Shown one piece after another: positions 9,002 through 53,762 of a stretch of DNA of 64,000 nucleotides. The position numbers were made by a program, and so were the translations under genes. This stretch comes from Eubacteriales bacterium. Lineage in GTDB: Bacteria > Bacillota > Clostridia > Oscillospirales > CAG-272. The notes under the pieces are model-generated. The model ran no database searches. It saw nothing but the letters and a program-made list of their open reading frames with translations, and was not told the DNA's origin. Location of the stretch: assembly GCA_045653945.1 (NCBI GenBank), contig JAZOML010000066.1, positions 9,900 through 73,899 on the forward strand, read 5' to 3'. Within the stretch, counting starts at the first letter, position 1, and every line of letters begins with the position of its first letter.

Positions 9002-10447
9002 ATGGCAAACTTCACTGAAGCCGAAATCAAAGAAATAGTAAATAAGGTACTCGCAGGCGTTTCGGCTGCGCCAAGTACCGCTGCATATACAAGCACAACC
9101 TATAACGGTAGACGCCTTATCGGTGTGTATTCCGATATGAACGAGGCAATAGACGCCGCAGAAAGAGGTTATAAAGCAGTGCGCTCAATGACCGTTGAGC
9201 AAAGAGAAAAAATAATTACCGAAATACGTCGCTTGACCCGTTTGGAAGCACCCGTAATGGCTGAAATGGGCGTTGCGGAAACAAAAATGGGTAAGGTAGA
9301 GCATAAGAGATTAAAGCATATTCTTGTTGCTGATAAGACACCCGGAACCGAGGATATCGTATCCGAAGCAAAGACGGGTGATAATGGTCTTACGCTTACC
9401 GAAATGGCTCCTTTTGGAGTTGTTGGTGCGATTACACCAAGTACAAACCCTTCAGAAACGGTAATTTGTAACTCAATCGGTATGATAGCGGCAGGAAATG
9501 GAGTTGTATTCAACCCTCACCCCGGAGCAATCTGCGTATCGAATTACGCAGTTGACTTGGTTAACAGAGCCTCTGCTGCTGCCGGCGGTCCTGAGGTGCT
9601 CGTTTGCTCAATGGATAAGCCTACACTCGATAGTGCTGCTATAATGCAATCTCATCCCAAAATCAAGCTTTTAGTATGTACGGGTGGCCCGGGAGTTGTT
9701 AAAGCAGTTCTTTCCTCAGGTAAAAAAGCAATCGGTGCGGGTGCGGGAAATCCCCCCGTTATCGTTGACGATACCGCCGATGTCCGTAAGGCGGCGAAGG
9801 ATATTATTGACGGCTGTACCTTTGATAATAACCTACCGTGTATAGCTGAAAAAGAGGTGTTTGCATTTGATAGCATCGCAACCGAGCTTATAAACGAAAT
9901 GCAAAGAAACGGAGCATATCTTATCACAAGAGAACAGGCTGAAAAGCTTATCCCCGTTGTACTTAATGAAAAAACAGGCAAAAACGGCAAAGTATCCAAG
10001 GTTGTAAGCCGTGATTGTGTAGGACGTGATGCCGACGTAATTCTTGCGAAAATCGGCATTAACGTTGGTAAGGAAGTACGTTGTATTATTTGCGAAACCG
10101 ACTTTATGCATGATTTCGTTCAGCACGAGCTTATGATGCCTATTCTTCCTATTGTCAGAGTCCGTGATATCGAAGAAGCGATTGACCTTGCAGTTAAAGC
10201 CGAGCACGGCAATAGACACACCGCACATATGCACTCTAAAAACGTTGATAGACTTTCAGCATTTGCAAAAGCAGTTGAAACCACGATTTTCGTAAAGAAT
10301 GCACCTTCGTATGCGGGTATAGGCTTTGGCGGTGAGGGACATACAACCTTTACCATAGCAGGACCGACAGGCGAGGGAATTACGTCAGCTCGCTCCTTTA
10401 CAAGAAAGCGTAGATGCGTAATGGCTGAGAATTTTAGAATAATTTAA
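9002..10447 (+). CDS. CoA-acylating aldehyde dehydrogenase (PduP/EutE type) with an N-terminal encapsulation-like peptide
   Basis: 481 aa. It carries the catalytic NNLPCIAEKE motif and GAGAGNPP. The N-terminus MANFTEAEIKEIVNKVLAGV is followed by a low-complexity linker. Confidence 0.9.
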   Translation: MANFTEAEIKEIVNKVLAGVSAAPSTAAYTSTTYNGRRLIGVYSDMNEAIDAAERGYKAVRSMTVEQREKIITEIRRLTRLEAPVMAEMGVAETKMGKVEHKRLKHILVADKTPGTEDIVSEAKTGDNGLTLTEMAPFGVVGAITPSTNPSETVICNSIGMIAAGNGVVFNPHPGAICVSNYAVDLVNRASAAAGGPEVLVCSMDKPTLDSAAIMQSHPKIKLLVCTGGPGVVKAVLSSGKKAIGAGAGNPPVIVDDTADVRKAAKDIIDGCTFDNNLPCIAEKEVFAFDSIATELINEMQRNGAYLITREQAEKLIPVVLNEKTGKNGKVSKVVSRDCVGRDADVILAKIGINVGKEVRCIICETDFMHDFVQHELMMPILPIVRVRDIEEAIDLAVKAEHGNRHTAHMHSKNVDRLSAFAKAVETTIFVKNAPSYAGIGFGGEGHTTFTIAGPTGEGITSARSFTRKRRCVMAENFRII

Positions 10448-21843: not shown

Positions 21844-21876
21844 TAAACTAATAAATTATGTGTGCGGAGAAATTTT

Positions 21877-22542
21877 ATGAAAAAAAACCGTATTATAAAA
21901 TACTTGTGCCTTATACTCACATTAACCTTGCTGTTGACCTCTCTTTGCGGTTGCTTTGATTTTGATAAGATGATGATTGACCTTGGAATGTATGAAGAAA
22001 AAAAGGATGTAAATGCCAAGTATAACGTTATGTTACGCGATGGCGAAGGTTACGTTTGTGTAGACAAGGAAAACCTGAAATCCATTTGGGAAGGAGAACC
22101 CGTCGTATTCCAAATTCAGTTGCGTGAGGGATATATTTATATGGGTAATTCTGCGGGGGCAGATTATAATCCCGAAACGGGAACACTGAAAATAAAACGT
22201 GTTACGGCACCCGTTACAATAGACGTGCAGGTTGGAAACAAATATGACCTTTACTGTGTTGACGTAAGGATTCCCGAGGGAGTAATACGAGAAAGCAGCA
22301 AGGGGGATACATTCCCGTTTATTCGTGGCGGAGAATGGTCGACAATACCCGGAAAGGTAATCGTATCCGTTAAGGATTGCTATGATAAAAGTGTTTACAA
22401 GTTCGTTGAGTGGAGAATGCACGAGAACGGCGCCTTAATAGATTGGACAGGCTCCTCACCCGATGAGGAAGAATTTTCTTTCCAGACACTTGAAAAGGGA
22501 ATTGTAAAGCTGGAAGCCATCTTTGAGTCGGCGAATAATTAA
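21877..22542 (+). CDS. Hypothetical lipoprotein
   Basis: Start at ATG 21877. Signal peptide with lipobox LTSL-C-GC. No family recognised with confidence. Confidence 0.6.
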   Translation: MKKNRIIKYLCLILTLTLLLTSLCGCFDFDKMMIDLGMYEEKKDVNAKYNVMLRDGEGYVCVDKENLKSIWEGEPVVFQIQLREGYIYMGNSAGADYNPETGTLKIKRVTAPVTIDVQVGNKYDLYCVDVRIPEGVIRESSKGDTFPFIRGGEWSTIPGKVIVSVKDCYDKSVYKFVEWRMHENGALIDWTGSSPDEEEFSFQTLEKGIVKLEAIFESANN

Positions 22543-22823
22543 TGGGGGAATTTAAAATGGAATACGTAATATTTAATTCGCCCCTTTCGCTTATTGCGTT
22601 TGCAGTTGCTACAGGAATTTATCTTATTCTTGGTATTATGCGCAGATATATGCCAAGAATGATTATTATACCAGGTATTCTCGGTATTTTAAATATCATT
22701 TTGCACGTTGGCATATTTTTACTTTGTATGTATCTTGGAGCAACTATGCAAGAGATATTGTTTGTATTTGTCGTGTCGGGCGCCATTGCCTTGACAGTTA
22801 CAAGGCAAAGAAAGGGGGAATAA
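22542..22823 (+). CDS. Small integral membrane protein (3 TM), unknown function
   Basis: 93 aa. The start overlaps the upstream stop (TAATG). Three hydrophobic helices. Confidence 0.55.
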   Translation: MGEFKMEYVIFNSPLSLIAFAVATGIYLILGIMRRYMPRMIIIPGILGILNIILHVGIFLLCMYLGATMQEILFVFVVSGAIALTVTRQRKGE

Positions 22824-22827
22824 CGGT

Positions 22828-24309
22828 ATGGATATAATTTCACTCGCTTTCTTACTGTTTTTGCCGATAACCCTCATTCTTTACAGAATATTTCCTGCAA
22901 GACTGCGTTGGTTTGTACTTCTTGTGGCAGGATACGTTTTCCTCGGGATATATAATCCTTTGAGTTTACTTGCGATTATACTTATAACACTTGTAACATA
23001 TATTTGCGCAAGAAAAATCGAGTCGGAAATTGAAACGACAAAGAAACGATTCTATCTTATTCTTTCAACGGTTGTTTCTGTTGGCTCACTTATTGCATAT
23101 AAATATTTTGATTTCTTTGTTGATGAAATAATAAAATTCATTTCAATTTTTGGAATAAGTTTGCGTAGCGTTACGCTTAACCTCGTAATTCCGATAGGAA
23201 TATCCTTTATCGCACTTCGTTCGATTGCTTATACAGTAGAGGTTTTTCGCAAGAAAATTAAGCCCGAAAAACACTTTGGATACTATTCGCTGTATCTTTC
23301 GTTTTTTCCGACGCTTTTCGCAGGACCGATTGAAAAGCCTGCAGAATTCATTGAACAGCTTAAGCTGAAAAAACCGTTTGCGGGGTACGACGGTGCAAGA
23401 GGCCTAAAGCTTCTTGGCGTTGGATTTTTTAAGATAGCGGTTGTTTCAAGACAGGTTGCCTTTTACGTTGATTTGGTATATTCAAACGTTGGTTCAATCA
23501 ACGCAAACCTTATGAACGGCTTTACAGTGTTTCTTTCTACAGTTTTGTTTATGGCGCAGATATACTGTGATTTTTCAGGATATTGCGATATTGCGGCAGG
23601 CTGCTCAGCACTTATGGGAATAAAGCTTTCCACAAGCTACAATGCGCCCTATCTTGCAAACGGAATAAATGACTTCCTATACCGTTGGAATATAACCGTA
23701 AATAATTGGTTTGACAGCTATGTTTTGCAGCCTATTAAGGGCGAAGGTGAGTCTAAGATAAAAAAATACATAGCGATTGCAGTTGCCTGCTTACTTGGTG
23801 GACTTTGGTATGGCGCAGAATGGAGCTTTATTGTTCTAGGTGCTACCGTAGGAGCTATGATTATACTCTCGGAACTCCTTGCGCCGTTTGGAGCAAAAGT
23901 GCTTAATAGCTTCGGGCTTAAGCCCGAGGGTAAGCTCGTAAAAGCCGTAAAACGCTTGTTTATGATATTCTTATCCTTTGTTTTTGCAATGCTTGTAAGA
24001 GCTGATGATATAGTAGACTTTGGGCGTCTTTTTGCTACACTGCTTGCGGGCTGGTCAGGTGTAAGCCTTGCGACATCACTGAGCGAAATCGGAATGACGA
24101 TGCTCACGCTTGTAACTGTTTTGGCATCAATTTACTCGGTTGTTTTGCTTGATAAACAAATTTCCTTAGAAAAGGATAAGCTTCGCTTAAACTCGGTAGC
24201 AAGAGCAGAAAGAGTACAAGCTTATACTGTGCTTGGTTGGGCGATAGCGATAGCCTTTCTTATGCTTCTTGTATCTGATACAGGCATATATCAGTATTTT
24301 GTATTTTAG
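22828..24309 (+). CDS. MBOAT-family membrane O-acyltransferase (AlgI/DltB/PatA type)
   Basis: 493 aa and polytopic. The N-terminus (SLAFLLFLPITLILYRIF) and overall pattern resemble AlgI/DltB-like MBOATs. Confidence 0.8.
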   Translation: MDIISLAFLLFLPITLILYRIFPARLRWFVLLVAGYVFLGIYNPLSLLAIILITLVTYICARKIESEIETTKKRFYLILSTVVSVGSLIAYKYFDFFVDEIIKFISIFGISLRSVTLNLVIPIGISFIALRSIAYTVEVFRKKIKPEKHFGYYSLYLSFFPTLFAGPIEKPAEFIEQLKLKKPFAGYDGARGLKLLGVGFFKIAVVSRQVAFYVDLVYSNVGSINANLMNGFTVFLSTVLFMAQIYCDFSGYCDIAAGCSALMGIKLSTSYNAPYLANGINDFLYRWNITVNNWFDSYVLQPIKGEGESKIKKYIAIAVACLLGGLWYGAEWSFIVLGATVGAMIILSELLAPFGAKVLNSFGLKPEGKLVKAVKRLFMIFLSFVFAMLVRADDIVDFGRLFATLLAGWSGVSLATSLSEIGMTMLTLVTVLASIYSVVLLDKQISLEKDKLRLNSVARAERVQAYTVLGWAIAIAFLMLLVSDTGIYQYFVF

Positions 24310-24321
24310 GAGGGCGCATAA

Positions 24322-26589
24322 ATGTTTTTAAACTATAAGCGAATACCGCTTGTATATATTGTGCTTTCCATACTAACTCTTGGATATTATAGCGTTGTAT
24401 ACAGGCAGCAGGCTGCACGCGACTTTAATATCGCCGTCGGAATGAAAATGATAGAGGTTCCATCAGGAAAGGAAATGCTTCTTCATTACGTAACGTTGGG
24501 TATATACACAATGATTTGGGATATGAAATTCTTGAGTCTTTGCGAGGTATATATAAAAGAAAACGGAAAAGAATCTGAGCTTGATTTTGAAAGCTACCGT
24601 TTTCTTGCGGCGGTACCGATAGTAAGATTTCTCGCAGTAAAGAATTTTGTTTCGCAAATAAACCTTGTTTGCCGTATTTACAGTGATAAGCAGCTTGAGG
24701 ACGTTGATGCCAGCGACCTTACGTTTAATCGCGTAAGAGAAGTAAACATTGATGATATTTATACTCCAGCAAAGCAAATTGATACCTCAATATACGACTT
24801 TTCTGCCGAAAAAATGGAAATGGAAAAACCCAAGGCTGTCGAAAAGGAAAAAGAAGCAGACGAGGTAGATGAGAAAAAACACGAAAGTCGAATGATAGCC
24901 GGCCACGCCGTTGTTGAGGAATATGACCCCACGCGCGACTATCGTAGGATAGGTTATCAGCTTCGTTTTGAACGTGAGGAAAAAATAGCTGAAAGGGAAG
25001 AAGAGGAAAAGAGAAGGATTGAAGCAGAGGAACAGGCAAAAAGTCTTGCGAAAGGCAATACAAATACTGTTCCCGTTATCGTTTCACACCGCAGTAAAAT
25101 GTGGTTTGTTAAGGTTGTTGCTTTGACCTTACTTGTATTCATTTTGCCATTTGCGGCTGTTGTAACGACGATTTTCGCGTTTCCAAGTGTATATGACGAA
25201 AGCTATGTTGGCTCACTTTCCAAAAAATATGAGCTTCTTAATAGTATAAACGATAAAAAGATAGTCATTATCGGCGGTGATTCAGTTGCAATGGGAATAA
25301 GCTCTCAAACTATTGAGGATGAGCTTCCGGAGTACCGAATAGTAAACTTCGGTATGGACTCTGAGCTGGGTATGAAAATGCTGATAGACCTTTCGCGTTC
25401 AGCAATAAATAGCGGAGATATTATAATTATATCTCCGGAGCTTAACGCACAGTCGATGTCGCTTAATTTTAACGGCGAAAAGGCTCTTGAGGCTCTTGAC
25501 GGCAATTTTGAATTGCTTATGCAGATAGATAGTGGAGATTACTCCGCATTGCTTGGCTCTTCAGTGCAGTTTGCGACAAATAAGCTCGGCTACATCTTTG
25601 AAGACAAAAAGCCAACCATCAGCCGTCCGGCATACGCAAAAGGCAATTTTGATGATTATTATGGAGATAACATATATAACAGACCTCTGAACGAAACCTT
25701 CGGCTTGTATAATCCGGTTAATTTTGAATTCAAAATTAATATGAAGGATAGCGAGGTAACCGAATATGAGGAGTTTATACAGTATATAAATGAATTTACT
25801 CACTATGCGGAAAGAAAGGGCGCAACAGTTTACTTTACCTTCAGTCCAATATGTAAGGCGGCCATTGACAGCTCGGTTAGTGAAAAATCTATAAGCGCAT
25901 TCTTTGACAATATTTGCGAAAATCTTCAATGCCGTGTTATAAGCGACATTAACAACTGCATTATGGACGAGGGATATTTCTACGACAGTGAATTTAACTT
26001 GAATGATGCAGGAAAAATTGCAAGAAGCCTTATGCTTGTTGATGATATAAAACGCGAAATGTTGAATGAAACGCAAAATTCTGAAACCAAACCTGTTGCT
26101 CCCGGTTATACATATCCGACAATTCGTGTTGAATCTTCTTCGGATATAACTAACGCAGAGGATTTTGAATTTGAAATGATTTTGCTTAAAAACGGAAACG
26201 ATTATGCTCACTATTATTCAATATGCGGAGTATCGGAGCAGGGCTTCCAAAAGGAGCTCCTTACGTTGCCAAACGTTCATAACGGAATACCAGTTGTTGG
26301 TATATCAGCAAATGCATTCAAGGAAGCGCCTTATCTGAAGGAAATTGAGCTTTCTAAAAATATTGCTGTAATTGCAGCTGATGCTTTTGCGGGAAGCTCT
26401 GTTAAAAAGGTATACTTTGCCGACGGAATCAAGCCTTATATGATTTTCATAGGTCAGAGCATTAGCGAACACGACGTGATAATAGACAAAGGGATAACGT
26501 TCTATGTAAATGCGGAAAATCTCTCTGCTTTCCAAAACGATAATCGTATGTGGAGTAAATACGCAAACTATATAGAGGCAAAATCTTAA
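24322..26589 (+). CDS. Multidomain membrane protein: DUF4234-like N-terminus, Glu/Lys-rich coiled coil, TM anchor, SGNH/DltD-like domain, C-terminal BspA-type leucine-rich repeats
   Basis: 755 aa. N-terminal LTLGYYSVVY / LGIYTMIWDMKF motifs. EEKIAEREEEEKRRIEAEEQ block. TM segment WFVKVVALTLLVFILPFAAVV. KIVIIGGDSVAMG (GDS). C-terminal IPVVGISANAFKEAPYLKEIELSKNIAVIAADAFAGSSVKKVYF. Confidence 0.6.
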   Translation: MFLNYKRIPLVYIVLSILTLGYYSVVYRQQAARDFNIAVGMKMIEVPSGKEMLLHYVTLGIYTMIWDMKFLSLCEVYIKENGKESELDFESYRFLAAVPIVRFLAVKNFVSQINLVCRIYSDKQLEDVDASDLTFNRVREVNIDDIYTPAKQIDTSIYDFSAEKMEMEKPKAVEKEKEADEVDEKKHESRMIAGHAVVEEYDPTRDYRRIGYQLRFEREEKIAEREEEEKRRIEAEEQAKSLAKGNTNTVPVIVSHRSKMWFVKVVALTLLVFILPFAAVVTTIFAFPSVYDESYVGSLSKKYELLNSINDKKIVIIGGDSVAMGISSQTIEDELPEYRIVNFGMDSELGMKMLIDLSRSAINSGDIIIISPELNAQSMSLNFNGEKALEALDGNFELLMQIDSGDYSALLGSSVQFATNKLGYIFEDKKPTISRPAYAKGNFDDYYGDNIYNRPLNETFGLYNPVNFEFKINMKDSEVTEYEEFIQYINEFTHYAERKGATVYFTFSPICKAAIDSSVSEKSISAFFDNICENLQCRVISDINNCIMDEGYFYDSEFNLNDAGKIARSLMLVDDIKREMLNETQNSETKPVAPGYTYPTIRVESSSDITNAEDFEFEMILLKNGNDYAHYYSICGVSEQGFQKELLTLPNVHNGIPVVGISANAFKEAPYLKEIELSKNIAVIAADAFAGSSVKKVYFADGIKPYMIFIGQSISEHDVIIDKGITFYVNAENLSAFQNDNRMWSKYANYIEAKS

Positions 26590-26596
26590 AGCTTTA

Positions 26597-26637
26597 ATAA
26601 CCCCATTTGCAATTAGTTAGTAAATGGGGTTATTTGT
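26597..26637 (+). terminator. Intrinsic terminator
   Basis: ATAACCCCATTT...AAATGGGGTTAT hairpin followed by TTTG. Confidence 0.75.
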
Positions 26638-26676: not shown

Positions 26677-26705
26677 TTGATTTTTAAAAAAGTGTGTGAT
26701 ATAAT
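26677..26705 (+). promoter_or_regulatory. Sigma-A-type promoter (TTGATT-17-TATAAT)
   Basis: Hexamers at 26677-26682 and 26700-26705 with a 17-nt spacer, 43 nt upstream of ATG 26749. Confidence 0.6.
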
Positions 26706-26748
26706 TTTCATATAGCCTATATATTATATTAAAAAATAGGAGAAAATA

Positions 26749-28164
26749 ATGAAATTACGCAATTTGTATACAGGCACACGAGCCTTTTCATATATAATAT
26801 TCGATAAATCGGACACAGATGTTACCGAAAATCTGCTCGATGAGTTCGATGCAGAGGGTTATCGCTATTGGTTTTCGCCGAAGCTCAATCCCGATGAAGT
26901 GGAGTTACAGGAAATTTCGGCTAAGCTGGATAAGGCGGTGGCAATCGTTCTTATTCTAACTAAAGGAGTTATCAATGATACTCATATCAAGAGTATGGTC
27001 GAATACGGAATTGAAAGACGCACAAGCTTTGTAATATATGCAATTGATTATTCTGCCGAAGGTACTTCATATATGAACTCTATATTAGAAAGAGCGAAAA
27101 ATGCTACGGTGGTTCGCGGTTGGGAGCAAAGCTTTGCTGAAAGCCGTACAATGAAACAAGTGCTTAGCCCAACTAAGGGACTTACCGAAAGCGAGGCGGA
27201 AAAATTTTACCGTAAGGGCATATCGGTATTCGAGGGAAACACACCTCCTACCAGATTCGAGCTTGCTGAGGGAATGAAAAACGTTATGTACGCAGCAGGT
27301 CAGGAATATGCTCCTGCACTGGTGTTCCTTGGGAATTACGCGCTTGAAATGGCAAGACAGGGAAGTGAATCATATTCTACCGCCATTGCATATTTTAAAG
27401 CAGCGGTTAAGCTTGGAAATATTGAAGCTATATATAACCTTGGCTGTATGATTGCTGACGGAGAGGGCTTTGCGCAAAATTACGATATTGCAGCGCCGTA
27501 TATTTCGATAGCGGCACTTAAGGGAATTCCTGATGCACAGTATAGATTTGCCGATATGCTCGATAATGGCTACGGTATGCCTCAGAACCGAGAGGAAGCC
27601 ACAAAATGGTATATAAAGGCTCTTGATAACGGTGATAAACGCTCTTATTTACCCCTTGCACACAGATACTTGGTAGGAGAGCATCTTCGCCGCGATGAAA
27701 ACGTGGCTACGAGATATTTTATAGCCGCAGCGGACGAGGGCAACGTTGAAGCGATATTTATGCTTGCAAAGCTCTACCGCGATGGCGTTGGAGTAAGAAA
27801 GGATATGATAAAATCCGAGGAATACTTCAGACGCTCAGCCGAAAATGAAATTGTTGAGGCTCAGTATGAATACGCCCTTATACTTATTGGTAAAGGAGAA
27901 TATAGCGAGGCGTTTAAATGGCTAAACTACGCATCTATTGAAAAAGAGTACGGCAAGAGCGCACCTGCGCATATACTCTTTAAGCTCGGTCAATGCTATA
28001 GCCTCGGATATGGCACCGATGTTGATAGAAAAACCGCATTTCTTTATTATCATAAGGCGGCACTTGCCGGGAATAAGGACGCCAAAGCGGCGCTATCTGA
28101 GTGCTACCGTCGCGGAGTTGGAGTTGCAATAAATAAGCGCGCAGCCGAATACTACGCATACTAA
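26749..28164 (+). CDS. TIR-like N-terminal domain fused to about 7 Sel1-like (SLR/TPR-type) repeats, cytoplasmic
   Basis: 471 aa with no signal peptide. The N-terminus FSYIIFDKSDTDVTENLLDEFDAEGYRYWF ... AVAIVLILTKGV...SMVEYGIE follows the TIR_2 strand/helix pattern. The C-terminal half has repeated A..G...A...LG..Y..G.GV..D...A..W/Y Sel1 units. Confidence 0.6.
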   Translation: MKLRNLYTGTRAFSYIIFDKSDTDVTENLLDEFDAEGYRYWFSPKLNPDEVELQEISAKLDKAVAIVLILTKGVINDTHIKSMVEYGIERRTSFVIYAIDYSAEGTSYMNSILERAKNATVVRGWEQSFAESRTMKQVLSPTKGLTESEAEKFYRKGISVFEGNTPPTRFELAEGMKNVMYAAGQEYAPALVFLGNYALEMARQGSESYSTAIAYFKAAVKLGNIEAIYNLGCMIADGEGFAQNYDIAAPYISIAALKGIPDAQYRFADMLDNGYGMPQNREEATKWYIKALDNGDKRSYLPLAHRYLVGEHLRRDENVATRYFIAAADEGNVEAIFMLAKLYRDGVGVRKDMIKSEEYFRRSAENEIVEAQYEYALILIGKGEYSEAFKWLNYASIEKEYGKSAPAHILFKLGQCYSLGYGTDVDRKTAFLYYHKAALAGNKDAKAALSECYRRGVGVAINKRAAEYYAY

Positions 28165-28166
28165 AT

Positions 28167-28198
28167 AAAAAACCGCAACGCATTGTTGCGGTTTTTTT
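28167..28198 (+). terminator. Intrinsic terminator
   Basis: AAAAAACCGCAAC-GCATT-GTTGCGGTTTTTTT. Confidence 0.9.
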
Positions 28199-28242
28199 GT
28201 ACCTTTTTTGCAAATACTAAATCAAAAAAGGTAGGTTTTGTT

Positions 28243-31269: not shown

Positions 31270-32454
31270 TTAATGGTGGAAGAGACGCATACCGGTAAAT
31301 GCCATAGCCATACCGTACTTGTTGCAAACGTCGATTACGTTGTCATCACGGATAGAGCCGCCGGGCTGAGCAATGTAGGAAACGCCGCTCTTCTTTGCTC
31401 TTTCAATGTTGTCGGCGAAGGGGAAGAACGCATGGGAACCAAGTGCAACACCCGAAATAGTTGCAAGATAAGCCTTTTGTTCTTCTTTGGTGAACGGCTC
31501 AGGCTTGGTAGAGAAGAGAGTTTGCCAAACGCCCTCAGCAAGGACGTCCTCGTATTCGTCGGAAATGTAAACGTCGATAGCATTATCTCTGTCGGGACGC
31601 TTAACAGTGTCAAGGAAGGGAAGGTTAAGCACCTTGTCGTGCTGACGGAGATGCCAAATATCAGCCTTGTTACCTGCAAGACGTGTGCAGTGAATTCTCG
31701 ACTGCTGACCTGCGCCAACACCGATAGCCTGTCCGTCCTTTGCAAAGCAAACGGAGTTAGACTGAGTATATTTAAGAGTGATAAGAGCGATTATAAGGTC
31801 GCGCTTTGCATCATCGGGAAGAAGCTTGTTTTCGGTAACGAGATTGTCAAGGAGAGCCTCGTCGATAACGAAATTGTTTCTGCCCTGCTCAAATGTGATG
31901 CCGAAAACCTGCTTCTTTTCCTGCGGATTGGGAACGTAGTTTTCGTCAATCTTTACGATGTTGTAGCCGCCCTTTCTCTTTCCCTTGAGAATTTCAAGAG
32001 CCTCGTCGGTGTATCCGGGAGCAATAACGCCGTCGGAAACCTCACGGGCAATAAGCTTAGCGGTAGTAACGTCGCAAACGTCGGAAAGAGCAATCCAGTC
32101 GCCAAAGGAACTCATACGGTCGGTACCTCTTGCTCTTGCATAAGCGGTAGCAAGGGGGGACTGGTCAAGACCTTCAACGTCGTCAACAAAACAAGCCTTC
32201 TTAAGCTTTTCGCTCATTTTGTTGCCGATGGCGGCAGAGGTAGGGCTTACGTGCTTAAATGACGTAGCAGCGGGAACACCAAGCGCACGCTTGATTTCCA
32301 TAACGAGCTGCCAGCTGTTAAGAGCGTCAAGGAAATTGATGTATCCGGGACGTCCGTTGAGAATTTCGATAGGAAGCTCGCTGCCGTCTTCCATATAGAT
32401 TTTAGATGGCTTTTGGTTGGGGTTGCAGCCGTATTTGAGTTCGTAATCCTTCAT
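31270..32454 (-). CDS. purH: AICAR formyltransferase-only PurH-like protein (no MGS-type IMP cyclohydrolase domain)
   Basis: 394 aa. Begins KYGCNPNQ and contains FKHVSP and GAGQQSRI motifs of the AICARFT half of PurH. Confidence 0.85.
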   Translation of the reverse strand: MKDYELKYGCNPNQKPSKIYMEDGSELPIEILNGRPGYINFLDALNSWQLVMEIKRALGVPAATSFKHVSPTSAAIGNKMSEKLKKACFVDDVEGLDQSPLATAYARARGTDRMSSFGDWIALSDVCDVTTAKLIAREVSDGVIAPGYTDEALEILKGKRKGGYNIVKIDENYVPNPQEKKQVFGITFEQGRNNFVIDEALLDNLVTENKLLPDDAKRDLIIALITLKYTQSNSVCFAKDGQAIGVGAGQQSRIHCTRLAGNKADIWHLRQHDKVLNLPFLDTVKRPDRDNAIDVYISDEYEDVLAEGVWQTLFSTKPEPFTKEEQKAYLATISGVALGSHAFFPFADNIERAKKSGVSYIAQPGGSIRDDNVIDVCNKYGMAMAFTGMRLFHH

Positions 32455-32465
32455 TTTGTATCTCC

Positions 32466-33188
32466 TTAAACCTTTTTGAATTTGTTAATCATCCTGTTTT
32501 CTACCTTGCCGTCCTCAAGAGAAATATAGCGGACGTAAAGGGAAATCTTGTTGTTTTCGTTGAGAGAGGTCCAAATTTCGTTTGTAAATGCGTCGATATC
32601 GGCAGGGATGTCAATTCTTTCAGGCTCACCGACGAATGTAGGAATAGGATTTCCGTCGCAAACGTAGGTGTGAATAAAATGACCAAGTCCCTTAATAGGC
32701 GCATATTCAAAGAACTGACGGTTGCAAACCGTACCCTCGGCATCTCCGCTCTTTAAAATGCTCATTTTGTAGGAATATTCGTTATCAAAATTCATTATAG
32801 AGCTGATACGTGGAGTCCAGTTGGGATAGTCGGGCTCAAATGCTCTTGTGCGTAGAGCGTCCTCAAAAGTGCCGCCCTTGGAAACGAAATCGTAAATTGT
32901 GTCGGTCTGGTCGCCGTTGGTAACGATAAGAGCATTACCGCACTTTCTGATAGGAGAGTAGATGATAAGAGAGGGGTCCTCGACCTTGCTCTCGTCGTAG
33001 GGATAAATTGTAACGTCATCGCCGTTTTCTACAAAAATTCTATTTCTTGAATTTTCGCTTCTGCCCATTATAAAGTAGGCAAATACGGCACTCTTGCCAT
33101 CCGGAGTAAGACCGTTGATAATTCCGCGTCCAACGTAGGAATTACCCTCTACTGCTTTGCTTAATGATTTGGTTTCGTAAACGTTCAT
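32466..33188 (-). CDS. IMP cyclohydrolase-like protein (PurO-type fold family)
   Basis: Start at ATG 33188 after RBS GGGAGG; the longer ORF-track start runs into the riboswitch terminator. 240 aa. YVGRGI...FAYFIMGRS pattern. Lies immediately upstream of the AICARFT-only gene. Confidence 0.7.
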   Translation of the reverse strand: MNVYETKSLSKAVEGNSYVGRGIINGLTPDGKSAVFAYFIMGRSENSRNRIFVENGDDVTIYPYDESKVEDPSLIIYSPIRKCGNALIVTNGDQTDTIYDFVSKGGTFEDALRTRAFEPDYPNWTPRISSIMNFDNEYSYKMSILKSGDAEGTVCNRQFFEYAPIKGLGHFIHTYVCDGNPIPTFVGEPERIDIPADIDAFTNEIWTSLNENNKISLYVRYISLEDGKVENRMINKFKKV

Positions 33189-33221
33189 TTTATGTATCCT
33201 CCCAAAATTTATTATAATGTT

Positions 33222-33260
33222 AAAAATAAGGCAACTCCAAAAGACGTATTTGGAGTTGCC
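33222..33260 (-). terminator. Riboswitch expression-platform terminator
   Basis: The minus-strand RNA reads GGCAACUCCAA-AUACGUCUU-UUGGAGUUGCC followed by UUAUUUUU. Its 5' arm overlaps the 3' end (UGGGCA) of the ZTP aptamer. Confidence 0.8.
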
Positions 33261-33328
33261 CAGACGGTCGACTTTATTGCTCTTTGCTCCCACGCGGTTT
33301 TATCCGCTAATCCGTCAGTTACAAAGAA
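33257..33328 (-). promoter_or_regulatory. ZTP (pfl-motif) riboswitch aptamer
   Basis: The minus-strand RNA reads UUCUUUGUAACUGACGGAUUAGCGGAUAAAACCGCGUGGGAGCAAAGAGCAAUAAAGUCGACCGUCUGGGCA. P1 is UCUUUG/CAAAGA and P2 is GCGG/CCGC. The conserved ACUGACGG ... GACCGUCUGGGC pseudoknot pair is as in known ZTP riboswitches. It sits upstream of purine genes. Confidence 0.85.
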
Positions 33329-33343
33329 CCTTTTTCTAAATTG

Positions 33344-51103: not shown

Positions 51104-52033
51104 ATGTCTAATTGGGCAAGAGCGAGCTTGTTTAGTGCAGCAAGAAAATGTTTCCCTTGTAAATTCAACAATGGTATAACAACGGAAGTTTTAACATTAC
51201 TTGCTGAACACTGTGCTAGAAAAATTAAACGAATAACAAAGGTTGTTGTAAATGGAGCCAGCGTAACGTGTTCGATAGAATCTCAATCAAGATTATCTAC
51301 TTGGGATTTTACAGTTGATTTCAATGATTGGGGGCATATATCTTCTGCGTATTGGTACACGTCATCAAACTCGGACTCGTTGATTCCGAAGTGTTTTTCC
51401 CAAGCTTTAGCCGATGAAATTAAAAGTTATTTTATTAGAAACGGCATATATGTTGAAGAATATGGCAAACTTGTTGAAAATAATGGATTTATAGTATCTG
51501 AAGATTTGATTGATATTAATCAAAAAAAGTTAAAGTACATAGGTCAGACTGTTACTACAAATTATTCATCAAACGACTATAAAAAAGAGCATATTTTTGT
51601 TGCAGTGTCGTTGTTATTAAAGGCAGGATTTGTTAGAATAAAAGCAGTGCCGATTAAAGAGGCGACTAAAAGAAACAAAAAACAATTTTTTCAAATTAAA
51701 AGTATAACAATAGATGGTGAAGTATCTTTTGAAAAGGGGAAAAAGTTCCCTAAAAACAGCAAAGTATTGATTAAATATTATTTGAAGAAAAAGATTAAAA
51801 TGCCATATTCCAAAGAAAATTTAATGAATAAAAATTGTCATAATGTTGCAGAGAAAATGAGGGATTTAGGTTTTGTCGAAGTTAAACTTCATCCAATTAA
51901 AGATTTGGTGTGGGGGATTTTAAAAAAGGATGAATCTATCGAAAGCATTTCTATCGGTTATTGCGATATAGAAAAAGGTAAGGAATATGAGTATGATAAA
52001 AGAATAGATATATATTATCACACTTTTAAATAG
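51104..52033 (+). CDS. Hypothetical protein, AT-rich orphan, with a tandem C-terminal repeat of about 70 aa
   Basis: 309 aa. RBS AGGAG. No signal peptide or TM helix. Residues about 157-227 and 238-306 are an internal duplication (GFV..K..PIK...KK...I.SI.I....EKGK....K.I.I.YY). No family recognised. Confidence 0.7.
   Translation: MSNWARASLFSAARKCFPCKFNNGITTEVLTLLAEHCARKIKRITKVVVNGASVTCSIESQSRLSTWDFTVDFNDWGHISSAYWYTSSNSDSLIPKCFSQALADEIKSYFIRNGIYVEEYGKLVENNGFIVSEDLIDINQKKLKYIGQTVTTNYSSNDYKKEHIFVAVSLLLKAGFVRIKAVPIKEATKRNKKQFFQIKSITIDGEVSFEKGKKFPKNSKVLIKYYLKKKIKMPYSKENLMNKNCHNVAEKMRDLGFVEVKLHPIKDLVWGILKKDESIESISIGYCDIEKGKEYEYDKRIDIYYHTFK

Positions 52034-52115: not shown

Positions 52116-53762
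<1,647 letters not shown>

Follow-up and report, generated by a model that had tools for sequence, protein, structure and literature searches.

A conserved TIR-Sel1 protein of uncultured Clostridia without the canonical catalytic glutamate, a candidate non-enzymatic adaptor

Does a bacterial gene that joins a Toll/interleukin-1 receptor (TIR)-like module to an array of Sel1 repeats constitute a defence system of its own? This question is raised by a gene at positions 26749-28164 (+ strand; ATG start, stop codon included) of a 64,000-nucleotide stretch of contig JAZOML010000066.1 from a Eubacteriales bacterium (assembly GCA_045653945.1), a stretch to which we refer as the window. Bacterial TIR domains are now usually taken for enzymes, and an earlier note on this DNA had proposed that the 471-aa product acts as a stand-alone, NAD+-consuming defence sensor-effector. 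Here, we found that the protein indeed combines a TIR fold with a Sel1 solenoid. Its canonical catalytic glutamate column, however, is hydrophobic and no defence island was detected in 15 distinct loci, and the proposal was not supported. With a probability of roughly 0.55, we regard the protein as a non-enzymatic 'pseudo-TIR' adaptor.

As a full-length Foldseek search returned only Sel1 solenoids, the N-terminal domain was modelled and searched apart. AlphaFold confidence was high, with a mean predicted local distance difference test (pLDDT) score of 90.2 for the full-length protein and a pLDDT of 87.8 for the isolated N-domain. The N-domain model displays the flavodoxin-like five-stranded beta-alpha order of a TIR domain, namely betaA (residues 14-17), alphaA (20-36), betaB (38-41), alphaB (50-62), betaC (65-70), alphaC (78-89), betaD (93-98), alphaD (103-115), betaE (119-123) and alphaE (133-142). 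All of the top 17 Foldseek matches in the PDB were TIR domains (template modelling (TM) scores 0.49-0.70), the best of them being RPS4, TLR15, SPARTA TIR-APAZ, SARM1, MAL and AbTir; viral structures gave only generic flavodoxin-like, NDT or TIR matches. A profile of the N-domain matched PDB entries weakly, the top matches being exclusively TIR domains (Hydra TRR2, RUN1 and TLR1), and retrieved 2683 proteins at E<=1e-3 from a 1.84-billion representative library. Apart from P0112, eight of the nearest library relatives were scanned and all gave strong TIR_2 matches, many of them containing 4-5 TIR domains in tandem. The window protein does not reach the Pfam TIR_2 (PF13676) threshold of 28 bits, neither at full length (19.1 bits) nor as isolated domain (21.9 bits); across the family, all 27 of 27 N-domains match TIR_2, with a best E-value of 4.5e-10. 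We further compared the family with a separately built MAFFT alignment of 22 canonical relatives from the TIR_2 subfamily (A4). hhalign joined both alignments with a probability of 99.3% (E=1e-20), ungapped over the active-site region, and the window protein itself matched the A4 profile with E=1.3e-11. The N-terminal module (residues ~10-142; 26776-27174, +) is a TIR fold homologous to bacterial TIR_2 domains, and on this point fold and homology checks both confirmed the TIR-like N-terminus suggested by the earlier note.

The active site tells another story. In TIR enzymes, the catalytic glutamate is located on helix alphaC, four residues past a conserved tryptophan, which together form the WxxxE motif. 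NAD+ hydrolysis by TIR domains requires this conserved glutamate, which does not vary between active TIRs of bacteria (doi 10.1101/2022.05.07.491051). Three concordant alignments place Met83 of the window protein (codon 26995-26997, +) in the canonical column. First, a hidden Markov model (HMM) alignment to RUN1 (chain 7S2Z, an E100A mutant) sets residue 100 against position 83 and W96 against position 79, and Hydra TRR2 aligns to the family profile in the same register. Second, when 286 TIR domains were aligned to the family profile, position 83 was a glutamate in 223 of 262 residues. Third, Y18, W41 and E83 are invariant in A4, and hhalign pairs E83 of A4 with family position 83. Residue counts were taken over 38 distinct family sequences: column 83 holds Val (18), Ile (11), Met (4), Ala (3), Leu (1) or Thr (1) and is acidic in none of them, and the position of the canonical tryptophan, column 79, is occupied by Leu, Ile, Phe, His or Val.

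The glutamate that had been considered as catalytic, situated in the stretch SMVEYGIE, is E85 (codon 27001-27003, +). It lies two residues past the canonical column and is not invariant in the family, where column 85 reads Glu in 28 and Asp in six sequences and Met, Val, Ala and Gln in one each; canonical relatives vary here between N, D, E and S. The RUN1/Hydra TRR2, 286-domain and A4 alignments all rule out E85 as the canonical catalytic glutamate. A register shifted by two positions would place Lys or Ser on buried Trp or Cys positions and would need compensating indels. Since betaC and betaD are equally far apart in the family and in canonical TIR-Sel1 proteins such as P0075 (...QWFNKEL...), an indel that could bring about such a shift is lacking, and this option was rejected. 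Judging from helix geometry, E85 probably faces away from the canonical catalytic position.

Losses are not restricted to the glutamate column. Residues near-invariant in A4 are changed in the family at S17 (to A, V, L or I), D43 (to N, C or S), S77 (to D) and A87 (variable), and the A4-invariant Y18 is Phe in every family member. Y7, G9, D22, G37 and W41 are kept and presumably structural. An invariant set of polar and aromatic residues (D22, R39, Y97, R123, E126 and Q127) lines the C-terminal edge of the sheet, which suggests a conserved surface or pocket. The residue pattern of the TIR part is that of a pseudo-enzyme.

The second module is a Sel1-like repeat solenoid spanning residues ~165-470 (27241-28161, +), for which eight helix-turn-helix hairpins and a capping helix were counted in the AlphaFold model. 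Pfam Sel1 (PF08238) scores 105.3 bits against a cut-off of 30.7 (E=1.1e-30) in five scoring stretches, and five repeats between residues 209 and 388 keep a strict 36-residue period. Foldseek matched solved Sel1 proteins with E-values down to 7e-16, among them Oxalobacter 6OK3, E. coli c5321 (4BWR also matched), LceB 8SXQ, LpnE 6DEH and HcpC 1OUV. The window protein is a bona fide Sel1-repeat protein, as had been read from its repeats before. Its N-terminus (MKLRNLYTGTRAF) is not hydrophobic, and neither a signal peptide nor a lipobox nor a membrane segment was found; the maximum Kyte-Doolittle mean over 19 residues amounts to 1.36 and falls inside the TIR core. By these features, the protein is cytoplasmic.

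The family is small and well conserved. Database searches yielded 32 full-length proteins of 469-491 aa; one of them matches the window product at 100% identity, the other 31 at 44-89%. Full-length orthologs occur in 10 GTDB species representatives with one copy each, all of them metagenome-assembled genomes (MAGs) of uncultured Clostridia, Oscillospiraceae or Eubacteriales, and at least some of the source MAGs were obtained from animal guts. In comparison with the 89% identical ortholog, the ratio of nonsynonymous to synonymous substitution rates (dN/dS) amounts to 0.068 over the whole gene; the TIR part alone gives 0.114, the Sel1 part 0.042. The Sel1 array is therefore the most constrained part of the protein, whereas a phage sensor would be expected to diversify. 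P0112 (478 aa), a distant member with this architecture, combines strong Sel1 matches with an N-domain that is degenerate still further, having no Pfam TIR match and a GYRxW strand of which a part is gone. This protein suggests a progressive decay of TIR features in the lineage.

How could such a protein work? In the adaptor that we favour, the TIR module descends from a glutamate-bearing bacterial TIR_2 subfamily with the motif YxGxxPY-FISY-x-H-x-D ... GYRxWxD ... S ... E. It has dropped the catalytic glutamate along with several subfamily-conserved residues and kept those that hold the fold. The TIR part would serve self-association, hetero-association or ligand binding, as the TIRs of animal TLRs and MyD88 do, and the Sel1 solenoid, a protein-binding type of domain, would hold a partner protein. 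That NADase (NAD+-hydrolysing) activity is absent, that the protein serves as a scaffold and what it may bind as a partner are what we infer here. Several points weigh against this reading. The lack of NADase activity is deduced from sequence alone, and the partner of the scaffold is a putative protein. In 34 of 38 members, residue 85 is acidic; it resides on the same helix as the canonical column, and a non-canonical catalytic geometry involving this residue is, strictly speaking, still conceivable. The cluster of D22, R39, Y97, R123, E126 and Q127 could be a ligand-binding pocket or another catalytic pocket instead of belonging to a pure scaffold. Finally, some defence genes do lie outside islands.

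A first alternative keeps the pseudo-TIR and gives it a regulatory task. The protein would pair with active TIRs from other loci of the genome, as their regulator or as a decoy for them, or it would recognise a nucleotide derived from NAD; in both cases, the Sel1 array would link it to a target. The model for this is the RRS1 TIR restraining the RPS4 TIR, and the N-domain has its top Foldseek match in a chain from the RPS4/RRS1 TIR heterodimer entry. Candidate partners would be tandem multi-TIR_2 proteins: the nearest canonical relatives of the N-domain outside the orthologous group (P0080, P0081, P0084 and P0087; L046 860-3490) carry 4-5 tandem TIR_2 domains per polypeptide and have the N-terminal YxGxxPY motif in common with the TIR-Sel1 family. 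Some single domains within these tandem arrays are likewise without the catalytic glutamate, and the invariant polar cluster would fit a retained binding pocket. P0087 additionally carries Big_3_5 and CarboxypepD_reg domains. Set against this, a second TIR gene was found neither in the 64-kb window nor within 8 kb of any ortholog, the recovered P0080 contig measures only 3.7 kb and its context is uninformative on co-occurrence, and a defence context is missing. We consider this regulatory role rather unlikely. The same holds for a more far-reaching scenario, which remains speculative: a conserved pseudo-TIR, fused to a Sel1 solenoid, that gave up NAD+ chemistry and was kept over hundreds of millions of generations for a housekeeping role, either as adaptor or as receiver of signals, possibly regulating glutamate-bearing multi-TIR enzymes of the same genome or binding an NAD-derived nucleotide.

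The reading frame is preceded by a ribosome-binding site (AGGAG, 26738-26742, +) located 6 nt 5' of the ATG as read from the sequence, and the open reading frame (ORF) and the lack of a signal peptide agree with the earlier note. So does the proposed promoter: a sigma-70-type promoter-like site, TTGATT-17 nt-TATAAT with an extended TG, is found at 26677-26705 (+) and agrees with 10 of 12 consensus positions. This call is a consensus match, from which transcription is predicted; both hexamers are identical at the same relative position in locus L001, which harbours the 89% identical ortholog. A hairpin, ACCCCATTT...AAATGGGGT, lies at 26600-26630 behind the preceding gene, the end of which is at 26589. 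Downstream of the TIR-Sel1 gene, an intrinsic-terminator-like hairpin with a 14-bp stem, a 3-nt loop and a T-run lies at 28167-28197 (+, readable on both strands). A separate transcript appears plausible because of the promoter-like site, the hairpin behind the upstream gene and the terminator hairpin on the gene's own side.

The window is an ordinary piece of chromosome that carries groEL, ftsZ, glgB, a gene resembling gyrB/parE, and purine genes preceded by a ZTP riboswitch. Pfam annotation of the neighbours bears out the described position between a glycan cluster and housekeeping genes: the upstream genes form a surface-glycan cluster (ABC-2 permease, ABC ATPase, Wzy_C, MBOAT and a DUF4234 protein of 755 aa), and the downstream genes encode an M20 peptidase and a permease of the xanthine/uracil family, followed by the purine genes. 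The low G+C content claimed for the gene turned out to be an effect that disappears at gene scale, where 43.9% compares with 42.6% for the window and 39-43% for adjacent genes; single 60-nt lines range from 30% to 60%. Given this normal G+C content, the compositional case for a foreign origin fails, and we rejected the idea of a low-G+C foreign island.

For comparison, we sampled the neighbours of the gene in a small sample of 16 loci, 15 of them on distinct contigs, which together provided 148 proteins. The order MBOAT, DUF4234 protein, TIR-Sel1 gene, M20 peptidase and permease is the same in the loci of the 63% and 89% identical orthologs; the locus of the 56% ortholog keeps the upstream genes and the permease and lacks the M20 gene, and more distant orthologs have other housekeeping surroundings. 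The commonest neighbour families in Pfam are Wzy_C, MBOAT, LRR_5, permease, DUF4234 and M20. A glycan cluster containing Wzy_C or MBOAT directly precedes the gene in 9 of 15 distinct loci, including that of the most distant ortholog (44% identity), and six loci show unrelated upstream genes.

Within the upstream cluster, a four-gene block (21862-26589, +) is conserved in loci L001, L003, L005, L013 and L015. It encodes a 220-780-aa protein related to DUF4234/LRR_5, an 86-105-aa ORF (22542-22820 in the window), an MBOAT acyltransferase and a 738-959-aa DUF4234 protein. Its layout recalls surface-polymer acylation of the DltB/DltC/DltD type, and by this analogy the small ORF is a possible candidate for a carrier protein.

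A gene for a small lipoprotein is located directly 3' of the TIR-Sel1 gene in 11 of 15 distinct ortholog loci (L001, L003, L005, L007, L010-L014, L016 and L018), even where the outer flanks differ. The encoded lipoproteins measure 117-146 aa and show both a signal peptide and a lipobox of the form L-[AVI]-S-C; the mature parts represent two families that are not related to each other, of which one is weakly YfmQ-like. In L001, the lipoprotein gene (within 9420-9920) has a perfect TTGACA-17-TATAAT promoter, a terminator between the TIR-Sel1 and lipoprotein genes was not found, and the homologous terminator hairpin (9884-9920) sits 3' of the lipoprotein gene. The lipoprotein gene is absent from the window (28165-28242) and from four other loci. 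Since the hairpin that follows the TIR-Sel1 gene here follows the lipoprotein gene in L001, the window has lost ~460 bp holding the lipoprotein gene. The strong terminator of the earlier note thus exists as a hairpin, although ancestrally it is not the TIR-Sel1 gene's own and in relatives follows the lipoprotein gene.

Such conserved neighbours invite a second alternative, namely that the protein is a cytoplasmic organiser of envelope biogenesis that works with the adjacent glycan genes (ABC-2 exporter, Wzy_C, MBOAT and DUF4234/LRR), with the lipoprotein or with both. The position behind the glycan cluster in 9 of 15 loci down to 44% identity and the lipoprotein gene directly 3' in 11 of 15 loci, with no terminator found in between in L001, speak for it, as do the Sel1/TPR proteins AlgK and ExoR, which act in exopolysaccharide systems and to which NCBIfam indicates a weak similarity. 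AlgK and ExoR, however, are periplasmic, whereas the window protein is cytoplasmic, and the linkage may be mere inherited gene order. In addition, the lipoproteins split into two unrelated families, their gene does not depend on the TIR-Sel1 promoter-like site for a promoter, having a perfect one itself, and it is missing here and in four other loci; the upstream genes are unrelated in six. We thus regard an envelope-organising role as improbable.

What remains is the proposed role in defence. Sel1 repeats are not foreign to this field: the literature describes Sel1/TPR sensor domains in Avs5, whose effector domain comes from a different superfamily (PMC12931631), and Sel1 as a peptidoglycan-associated module in iSTAND systems. 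Enrichment in defence islands, a check that had been set beforehand, was not seen among the 148 neighbours using PADLOC and Pfam. No defence system recurred near the orthologs; 13 PADLOC families were represented by at most three proteins each, with matches not inspected individually. Of the three outcomes that the earlier note had named as refuting, two were thus obtained computationally: the alignments show no catalytic glutamate, and the sampled orthologs are not associated with defence islands. The window protein itself matched no PADLOC model for TIR/ThsB or other defence proteins beyond PtuA at 17 bits, a match to residues 322-366 of the repeats that was set aside, and Pfam detected no NTPase domain in it. 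Partner genes as in the known TIR-containing systems (Thoeris, TIR-STING/CBASS, SPARTA, TIR-Avs and Pycsar TIR effectors), namely those for ThsA, a cyclase, Ago or a STAND NTPase, were found neither in the window nor in the 15 other loci, where the neighbours are glycan, transport and metabolic genes. The full TIR-Sel1 architecture is absent from 50,697 phage and 72,556 plasmid records, which contain matches to the Sel1 region only. We conclude that the TIR-Sel1 gene is not a mobile defence gene but a vertically inherited, lineage-specific chromosomal gene of uncultured Clostridia. The earlier statement that TIR-Sel1 is not a described defence system stands insofar as literature searches found no such system; the architecture as such is already labelled in databases, as one ortholog bears the NCBI name 'toll/interleukin-1 receptor domain-containing protein' and a precomputed Pfam annotation of TIR_2+Sel1. 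Layouts with a solenoid and a TIR domain do occur in real immune proteins such as SARM1. A stand-alone anti-phage sensor-effector, in which the Sel1 array would sense phage and release a TIR NADase using the shifted E85, could invoke this layout along with the TIR fold found by Foldseek, the acidic residue in 34 of 38 members, the glutamate-bearing TIR-Sel1 fusions known elsewhere (P0055, P0074 and P0075) and the Sel1/TPR sensors of Avs5, but is highly improbable in view of the hydrophobic canonical column in all members, E85 being M, V, A or Q in four, the further subfamily-conserved residues that were lost, the missing PADLOC match and defence neighbourhood in 15 distinct loci, the stable synteny, normal G+C content and lack of copies on mobile elements, and a purifying selection that is stronger on the Sel1 array than on the TIR domain.

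Two further features of the window were recorded. A ZMP/ZTP riboswitch (Rfam RF01750, 56.6 bits) at 33251-33332 (-) lies 5' of the genes for an IMP cyclohydrolase-like protein and AICARFT (31270-33293, -), as is classical for this riboswitch. With the listed GTG start at 33293, the coding region would overlap the riboswitch, and the true start is therefore probably located further downstream. A 309-aa ORF without a Pfam match (51104-52033, +) adjoins groEL (52116-53762, -). The kilobase that contains it is sharply AT-rich (30% G+C, GC skew +0.26) and, alone in the window, clearly deviates in composition.

As a candidate defence system, the gene is of little importance, and the evidence against a new single-gene NADase system spares follow-up effort. 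Its value lies in the family itself: about 38 distinct sequences, restricted to MAGs of uncultured Clostridia, have been under strong purifying selection despite the loss of the glutamate. A naturally glutamate-less and conserved bacterial TIR would allow testing whether prokaryotic TIRs also act non-enzymatically, for example as scaffolds, regulators or ligand sensors. If the far-reaching scenario of a pseudo-TIR kept for housekeeping proves true, bacteria would possess an equivalent of the non-enzymatic TIR signalling adaptors known from animals or of the sensor-executor TIR pairs RRS1/RPS4 of plants. The family also calls for caution with the automated annotation 'TIR = defence'.

How does the protein compare with known systems? 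It shares its fold with the bacterial TIR_2 NADases AbTir, TcpB/BtpA, PdTIR, Thoeris ThsB and SPARTA TIR-APAZ, with TM-scores up to 0.65-0.70 against AbTir 7UXU and MapSPARTA 8SPO, and also the YxGxxP motif, D22, G37 and W41. Unlike these enzymes, the family has replaced the glutamate of WxxxE by Val, Ile or Met and the tryptophan by Leu, Ile, Phe, His or Val, and the window locus is without ThsA or Ago partner genes. With regard to the missing glutamate, the protein resembles animal adaptor TIRs (TLR1/2/15, MAL, MyD88 and the IL-1R family), which have a TIR fold without this residue and some of which are among the best structural and sequence matches (TLR15 7YLF, MAL 5UZB, TLR1 and IL-1RAPL2) in the absence of a close sequence relationship. 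In contrast to them, the family derives from a glutamate-bearing bacterial subfamily, and its scaffold function is a putative one. SARM1, composed of an ARM solenoid, SAM domains and a TIR domain, likewise combines solenoid and TIR in one polypeptide (TM-score of the SARM1 TIR 0.61-0.65). It differs by the opposite domain order, the SAM domains and a catalytic TIR (E642), none of which is found in the window protein.

On the side of the repeats, the Sel1 solenoid is shared with the Sel1-like repeat (SLR) proteins HcpC, LpnE, LceB, E. coli c5321 and the Oxalobacter SLRs at 21-30% identity, with Foldseek E-values of 7e-16 to 4e-10 for bacterial SLRs and weaker ones for AlgK and SEL1L/Hrd3. These bacterial SLR proteins are secreted or periplasmic, whereas the window protein lacks a signal peptide and carries an N-terminal TIR. 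Sensors of the Avs type also contain a repeat array, but the STAND NTPase that accompanies it there is missing in the window protein. The closest match in architecture is provided by metagenomic TIR-Sel1 fusions (P0055, P0074, P0075 and P0054), which have the same domain order and, like the window protein, no signal peptide. To our knowledge, none of these canonical fusions has been experimentally characterised. They keep W-x-x-x-E (CWVRDEL, QWFNKEL) and pass the Pfam TIR/TIR_2 threshold, whereas the window protein does neither, and the 29-35% identity that they share with the window protein is confined to the Sel1 part. Since glutamate-bearing TIR-Sel1 fusions thus exist in metagenomes, the fusion itself is not new: the TIR-Sel1 architecture is already known, and what this locus adds is a TIR-Sel1 family without the glutamate.

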